From Escherichia coli (GTDB lineage Bacteria; Pseudomonadota; Gammaproteobacteria; Enterobacterales; Enterobacteriaceae): DNA of 64,000 nucleotides. The translations under genes and the position numbers were made by a program. A model generated the notes under the pieces. That model worked only from the letters and a program-made list of their open reading frames with translations, searched no databases and was not told the origin of the DNA. Each line of letters starts with the position of its first letter. The stretch's first letter is position 1. The stretch lies in assembly GCF_024700885.2 (NCBI RefSeq), contig NZ_CP117016.1, one strand, 5' to 3'. Below, one piece after another: positions 33,442-33,828 of this stretch.

Positions 33442-33828
33442 ATGCGTAAAAGCCTGTTAGCTATTCTTGCAGTCTCCTCGTTGGTATTCAGTTCGGCGTC
33501 GTTTGCCGCTGATCTTGAAGACAATATGGAAACCCTCAACGACAATTTAAAAGTGGTCGAAAAAGCCGATAACGCGGCGCAAGTCAAAGACGCGTTAACG
33601 AAGATGCGCGCCGCAGCGCTGGATGCGCAAAAAGCGACGCCGCCGAAGCTCGAAGGCAAATCACCGGACAGCCCGGAAATGAAAGACTTCCGCCACGGTT
33701 TCGATATTCTGGTCGGTCAGATTGACGACGCGCTGAAGCTGGCAAATGAAGGTAAAGTAAAAGAAGCGCAGGCTGCCGCAGAGCAACTGAAAACGACCCG
33801 CAACGCCTATCACCAGAAGTATCGTTAA
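33442..33828 (+). CDS. cybC: Soluble cytochrome b562 precursor, apparently full-length with signal peptide
   Basis: 128-aa ORF with signal peptide ([22 protein letters not shown]) followed by the mature [15 protein letters not shown]... sequence. Confidence 0.9.

Follow-up and report, generated by a model that had tools for sequence, protein, structure and literature searches.

The window, i.e., the whole 64,000-nucleotide stretch of Escherichia coli DNA analyzed here, harbors between pmbA and nrdG a complete cybC gene, followed by two small overlapping genes forming a toxin–antitoxin (TA) pair of the relBE family (table 1). From the reading of the sequence and of its open reading frames (ORFs), the gene order of the window corresponds to a conserved E. 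coli block, and the genomes closest to it are those of MLI114 and GmM066 (100% identity), of an O7:H15 ST70 strain (99.7%), and of PCN033 (99%). MLI114, a wild isolate available in RefSeq, is 100% identical to the window over 24 kb, and its annotation carries the same three genes, namely cybC (cytochrome b562), relB, and relE. This annotation also places a second type II TA pair, chpS–chpB of the mazEF family, ~11 kb upstream, a pair that belongs to the normal K-12 gene order as well.

The gap between pmbA and cybC is occupied by an imperfect palindromic element of ~139 bp, which folds as a single long hairpin (−60.8 kcal/mol, z = −9.5) and is missing from strains of the ET76 type, whose pmbA–cybC gap is only 54 bp. 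This element, of which each E. coli genome has 1–6 detectable copies, one such copy lying between rhlB and gppA, looks like a member of one of the classical intergenic repeat families. As for known RNAs, an Rfam scan of positions 31000–36000 returned REP-derived naRNA4 matches, corresponding to the REP/BIME-type repeats of the mpl–yjgA gap (79.8 bits, above the gathering threshold) and of the nrdG–nrdD gap, together with a weak, sub-threshold match of V_AS5 on the palindromic element and nothing else, so that no known RNA was found in this interval to overlap cybC or the TA pair.

Table 1. Genes and sequence features of the window around cybC and relBE, in order of position.
Feature	Position	Strand	Basis or remark
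chpS–chpB, second type II TA pair (mazEF family)	~22406–23001		MLI114 annotation
mpl	29736–31109	+	ORF reading
REP/BIME-type repeat (Rfam naRNA4), mpl–yjgA gap	31135–31212		Rfam scan
yjgA	31261–31812	-	ORF reading
pmbA/tldE	31906–33258	+	ORF reading
Imperfect palindromic element, ~139 bp	33283–33421		Between pmbA and cybC
Shine-Dalgarno-like AGGAAGTG upstream of the cybC ATG	33430–33437	+	Read from the sequence
26 bp GTGAGCAATGCGTAAAAGCCTGTTAG, present in the window and deleted in K-12	33435–33460	+	Pairwise alignment with MG1655
cybC CDS, cytochrome b562 precursor, 128 aa + stop	33442–33828	+	ATG-to-TAA ORF of 128 codons with exact bounds; Pfam, NCBIfam, PDB alignment, RefSeq
Signal peptide coding region, 22 codons	33442–33507	+	Mature PDB chains begin at residue 23; predicted cleavage
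Mature cytochrome b562, 106 aa, heme ligands Met7 and His102	33508–33825	+	Alignment
Terminator-like hairpin TTGGGCGGT-N8-ACCGCCCAA with T-rich tail, downstream of cybC	33836–33861	+	Specific to the TA-bearing allele
Allele-specific segment, 709 bp	33838–34546	.	Alignments with MG1655 and other loci
Operator-like inverted repeats TGTAATGCAT / TGTAATGC / ATGCATTACA	33963–33995	+	Sequence reading; putative function
relB-family antitoxin gene, 80 aa	34020–34262	+	ORF reading; Pfam RelB, NCBIfam equivalog, RefSeq
relE-family toxin gene, 96 aa	34252–34542	+	ORF reading; PDB and NCBIfam matches, residue conservation
nrdG	34543–35007	-	Convergent with relE, stop codons directly abutting; ORFs and RefSeq annotation of MLI114
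REP/BIME-type repeat (Rfam naRNA4), nrdG–nrdD gap	35027–35178		Rfam scan
nrdD	35165–37303	-	ORF reading

Cytochrome b562 and RelBE in the Window

The claim, initially made from the letters of the sequence, that cybC is full-length here and begins with a signal peptide was upheld by the family and structure matches of the complete 128-codon ORF. The Pfam profile PF07361 (Cytochrom_B562) is matched over its entire length (profile positions 1–102 of 102, E = 5.8e-34, 117.2 bits for a cut-off of 30), the NCBIfam equivalog NF011632 “cytochrome b562” is matched with 193.7 bits for a cut-off of 130, and the 106-aa mature chains deposited in the PDB as 1apc, 256b, and 1qpu align to residues 23–128 of CybC (E = 2.7e-63). 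Because these solved mature chains align to residues 23–128, residues 1–22 can be assigned to the signal peptide, of which the basic n-region, the hydrophobic h-region, and the c-region, with an A-x-A-like cleavage site (SFA/AD), are all present. Likewise, Met7 and His102, the axial heme ligands in mature numbering, both occupy their expected positions. CybC would be synthesized as a precursor of 128 aa that the Sec pathway exports and signal peptidase cleaves after Ala22, and the resulting 106-aa four-helix bundle would bind one noncovalent b-type heme in the periplasm through Met7 and His102.

E. coli B is the strain of the classical b562 purification, and the BRIL scaffold was derived from its cytochrome b562. 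The locus of this soluble protein (CybC; PDB 256B/1QPU/1APC) likewise lies between pmbA and nrdG, and its 22-aa signal peptide, its 106-aa mature chain, and its Met7/His102 ligands are all as in the window. The mature window protein is identical to that of an E. coli B derivative at 104 of 106 positions and differs from it by two conservative replacements, I17V and D50G in mature numbering, an identity to a sequence with solved structures, from which the four-helix-bundle fold and heme binding, with a 562-nm alpha band, can be expected of the window protein too. All of these facts regarding cybC are already in the literature and in annotation.

Of the two ORFs located downstream of cybC, the one encoding the antitoxin matches Pfam PF04221 (RelB/DinJ, E = 6.1e-16) and the NCBIfam equivalog NF008412 (130.1 bits for a cut-off of 96), and the one encoding the toxin matches the PDB structures of RelE (4FXE, 4V7J/4V7K; E = 2.1e-35) as well as TIGR02385 (29.9 bits for a cut-off of 27.9); the PGAP annotation of the pair is RelB/RelE. 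relB is encoded first and relE second, with an overlap of 11 bp (34252–34262). Upstream of relB, the operator-like inverted repeats overlap an extended −10 motif (TGnTATAAT, with TATAAT at 33982–33987) and, as far as can be read from the sequence only, this region is presumed to be the autoregulated relBE promoter in the usual relBE operator–promoter layout. The classical relBE of K-12 (PDB 4FXE, 4V7J/4V7K) is likewise antitoxin-first and bicistronic, with overlapping genes and a palindromic operator over the promoter, and its toxin is identical to the window RelE at 61 of 95 residues, with the five catalytic/RNA-binding residues K52, K54, R61, R81, and Y87 all conserved. The window pair lies at the 3′ end of nrdG, whereas the classical pair lies at another chromosomal locus, in the Qin prophage region; the two are paralogs and not the same gene. 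As a paralog of the classical module, the window relBE would encode a ribosome-dependent mRNA endonuclease, the putative toxin, and its antitoxin.

The K-12 Lesion in cybC and the TA Polymorphism

That cybC is a pseudogene in MG1655, as the original prediction stated, is how the gene is annotated there (b4236, 368 bp, with nrdG directly next to it). The alignment of positions 33250–34600 of the window with the MG1655 interval, which had been proposed as a check, showed in MG1655 neither an identical intact cybC nor the same TA pair, and it revealed that the two absences correspond to two separate differences, namely a 26-bp deletion and the replacement of the TA segment. The former takes the ribosome-binding region at its 3′ side (including the 3′ part of the Shine-Dalgarno-like AGGAAGTG), the ATG, codons 1–6, and the first base of codon 7, and it deprives K-12 of the start codon and of the basic stretch with which the signal peptide begins. 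In the K-12-type allele, AAAAAAGGAA is joined directly to CTATTCTTGC, and no microhomology was seen in the sequence at the ends of the deletion; the window keeps all 26 bp. The only possible start of the remaining K-12 frame is an internal TTG devoid of a ribosome-binding site, and a product started there would have a signal peptide without its basic N-terminus and with only half of its hydrophobic core.

Outside of the deleted segment, residues 8–128 of the K-12 pseudogene, which occupies the orthologous locus, share 98% identity with the window protein and are identical to O157 CybC; because the latter is encoded by an intact gene, K-12 cybC has undergone no further decay. We considered whether the C-terminal differences of K-12 (A122S and Q125K) could reflect pseudogene decay and rejected this option, as these residues also occur in O157 and IAI39, where the gene is intact; the D72/S122/K125 allele, carried by K-12 and by the intact O157 gene alike, is a natural allele. 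As regards outgroups, CybC residues 1–128 were matched in E. albertii, E. whittamii, Citrobacter, and Salmonella. Because these outgroups encode CybC from residue 1, the sequences indicate that K-12 represents the derived state, the 26-bp deletion being seemingly private to the K-12 lineage.

The frequency of each cybC state was counted with 50-bp probes against 5426 complete E. coli genomes. The K-12 deletion junction was found in 355 of the 5426, always at 100% identity, and its carriers among the matches listed are all K-12 laboratory derivatives (60 of 60), including MG1655, BW25113, DH5alpha, DH1, C600, J53, MC4100, TG1, and S17-1. The intact 5′ segment, represented by 50 bp of the window, was found in 4612 of the 5426 genomes, and ~459 were matched by neither probe. 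One O157 genome, from a lineage that the probe missed, was checked and has an intact cybC; its codon 2 carries a synonymous CGT>CGA substitution, which breaks the 28-base seed needed by megablast. A few of the unmatched genomes may carry other cybC lesions, and such lesions do occur, since an interrupted cybC was seen in the isolate GPT21-004 (NZ_OY754853.1; positions 462–3310 of locus L062). There, an IS66-family, ISEc22-like element with tnpA, tnpB, and a transposase gene is inserted after ~28 codons, which constitutes a second, independent inactivation of cybC in E. coli. Overall, E. coli and its relatives normally carry an intact cybC, and K-12 is the exception.

The other difference with MG1655 is located beyond the cybC stop. 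The 709-bp allele-specific segment of the window holds the terminator-like hairpin, the TA promoter region, relB, relE, the nrdG stop, and the third base of the last nrdG codon, and in its place K-12-type genomes have an unrelated 39-bp hairpin spacer, TCCCTGTTGCCTGCACTCAGGTAACAGGGAACTTATCAT. Because the last codon and the stop of nrdG differ between the alleles (CGT-TAG at 34543–34548 in the window; CGA-TGA and then TAA in MG1655, at positions 3901–3906 of locus L001), the two alleles part precisely where the nrdG coding sequence ends. A derivation of the 39-bp spacer from the TA allele was tried and rejected: no homology between the spacer and the TA segment was detectable, the best local alignment score (16) being no better than those of 500 shuffles (16.4 ± 2.3). 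The spacer is identical in MG1655, O157, ET76, and GPT21-004. Across the 5426 genomes, the TA segment is present in 454 (complete in ~390, partial in ~64) and absent from ~4970; its copies are all chromosomal, and those of full length among the matches listed adjoin nrdG.

The original prediction had considered that a single deletion in the K-12 lineage might have taken the 5′ end of cybC together with the TA pair. K-12 does lack both features, but its two lesions flank opposite sides of cybC, of which 368 bp are kept between them. Moreover, O157, ET76, and GPT21-004 have the very same TA-less spacer, and cybC is intact in O157 and ET76 although these are TA-less; the E. coli B derivative, whose intact 387-bp cybC agrees with the functional b562 ascribed to E. 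coli B from the outset, has nrdG 44 bp further and no TA; and the 26-bp junction is found in 355 genomes versus ~4970 genomes devoid of the TA segment. A single event is thus refuted: the 26-bp deletion is a polymorphism unlinked to whether relBE is present or absent. The non-K-12 background proposed for the window, on the other hand, stands, as the window has no 26-bp deletion, carries a relBE pair missing in K-12, and has wild isolates such as MLI114 as its closest relatives. Another doubt concerns the activity of cybC, as its ORF could be intact and yet silent or nonfunctional here, for instance if its promoter were disrupted by the upstream 139-bp palindromic element. It is true that a simple scan of positions 33200–34700 gave no sigma-70 consensus promoter for cybC or for relBE, and that a strong hairpin element stands between pmbA and cybC, but O157 and K-12 have the same palindromic element upstream of cybC, and the coding-sequence variation across the compared lineages is only conservative. 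Given in addition that cybC is highly expressed in REL606, an E. coli B strain (PMC3446290), a silent cybC strikes us as very unlikely.

Age and Decay of the relBE Locus

To follow the TA pair outside of the lineage of the window, CybC was used in a cross-species scan with one genome per species, which gave 57 loci, and was complemented by tblastn and by the reading of junctions. In S. enterica arizonae, an intact orthologous pair abuts the nrdG stop, with 1.7 kb of other genes before cybC, and in Citrobacter sp. NCU1, E. whittamii, and E. coli E69, the pair is present with a frameshifted relE. STM4449–STM4450 of S. Typhimurium LT2, presumably adjacent to nrdG, would be the same nrdG-adjacent pair. 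STM4449–STM4450 has been described as a relBE TA module (PMC4070546; PMC8708949).

Other genomes retain only pieces of the locus. The antitoxin alone is found in IAI39 (positions 2270–2509 of locus L002), in which a 283-bp deletion is bounded by 8-bp CTGGATGA repeats (window positions 34248 and 34531) and in which the C-terminus of the orphan RelB is almost unchanged after the excision of relE. It is also found alone in Escherichia sp. E1V33 and SCPM-O-B-8794, and the ~64 partial TA segments among the 5426 E. coli genomes are mostly antitoxin-only in the matches listed, including O145 strains. Conversely, SCPM-O-B-7615 has a frameshifted toxin gene only (positions 2059–2348 of locus L003), and E. 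albertii has a toxin-only remnant of the same layout, with the antitoxin and the promoter both missing. In Citrobacter sp. R56, the remnant of relE is limited to its last ~70 bp. Finally, Escherichia sp. MOD1-EC7003 displays a clean deletion with a 5-bp CGCAA microhomology, which keeps the left flank and the hairpin of the TA allele and in which a new nrdG ending, CGG-TGA, is formed from left-flank sequence. Because the relE frameshifts of SCPM-O-B-7615, E. whittamii, E69, and Citrobacter NCU1 are at visibly different positions, and because E. albertii keeps a remnant only, these alleles suggest that the toxin has been inactivated repeatedly.

With regard to the origin of the module, the proteins of the S. 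enterica arizonae pair are 89% (RelB) and 72% (RelE) identical to those of the window, and the corresponding DNA identities are 78% for relB and 70% for relE, to be compared with 82% for nrdG, 75% for cybC, and 85% for pmbA. Although relE, at ~70%, is more diverged than the flanking genes, these identities are comparable to those of the flanking genes, and vertical descent therefore fits. A plasmid origin of the window relE was also envisaged and was rejected because the plasmid search gave only distant homologs of the toxin (~67%), with the exception of one chromosome-sized record misfiled as a plasmid.

Alternatively, relBE could be a recent horizontal insertion in the lineage of this strain, in which case the TA-less, K-12-type state would be ancestral for E. 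coli. Such a scenario would account for the occurrence of any TA segment in only ~8% of complete E. coli genomes, would be in keeping with the richness of plasmids in RelE-family homologs, and would dispense with deriving from the TA allele the 39-bp sequence that the TA-less allele has as its own. However, the plasmid homologs are too distant in protein sequence, and no transposase, integrase, or repeat scar was found beside the window module from the reading of its ORFs and repeats. Above all, the module or its remnants stand at the nrdG stop in S. enterica arizonae, Citrobacter NCU1 and R56, E. whittamii, and E. albertii, the divergence of the outgroup modules resembles that of the flanking genes, and several independent decay alleles are observed, which together make a recent insertion improbable in our eyes. 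Judging from a handful of outgroup genomes, relBE was most likely present ancestrally next to the 3′ end of nrdG and was lost repeatedly, and the TA-less state of K-12 is probably itself a loss, old and common to most of the species, that occurred by replacement with the 39-mer. Overall, we are highly confident in a reading in which the window cybC is normal and functional-looking, the K-12 deletion is private, and relBE is an independent locus, old at the 3′ end of nrdG and repeatedly lost. With appreciably less assurance, we lean toward a history in which relBE would already have resided beside nrdG, at its 3′ end, in the common ancestor of Escherichia, Citrobacter, and Salmonella and would since have been dismantled independently, by losses and degradations, in many lineages. 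The products of that dismantling could be the antitoxin-only loci, the frameshifted toxin-only loci, the clean microhomology deletions, the toxin 3′ remnants, and the 39-bp hairpin of ~92% of E. coli.

K-12 as a Reference and the Probable Loss of a Chromosomal TA Pair

From the perspective of gene content, an intact cybC is the norm and K-12 the odd one out, which matters wherever K-12 is used as the gene-content reference. The 26-bp junction is also a convenient means of recognizing DNA of K-12 origin. For example, a 396-bp contig assigned to Caballeronia mineralivorans PML1(12) (NZ_AEJF01000297.1) is 100% identical to MG1655 across the pmbA–cybC junction, down to the 26-bp deletion specific to K-12; this Burkholderiales assembly was almost certainly contaminated with laboratory DNA from E. 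coli K-12.

Cytochrome b562 is very widely used in protein engineering, notably through BRIL fusions, and to our knowledge its natural function and its physiological electron-transfer partner are not known. This natural function is to be studied in wild strains like that of the window, rather than in K-12. As for the TA pair, what is mildly new in this analysis is limited to the series of alleles in which a relBE locus that looks ancient has decayed independently, alleles which are of modest interest for the evolution of TA systems. If relBE has indeed been an ancient resident of the 3′ end of nrdG, then this locus would offer a natural series on how a chromosomal TA pair can be lost without killing its host.
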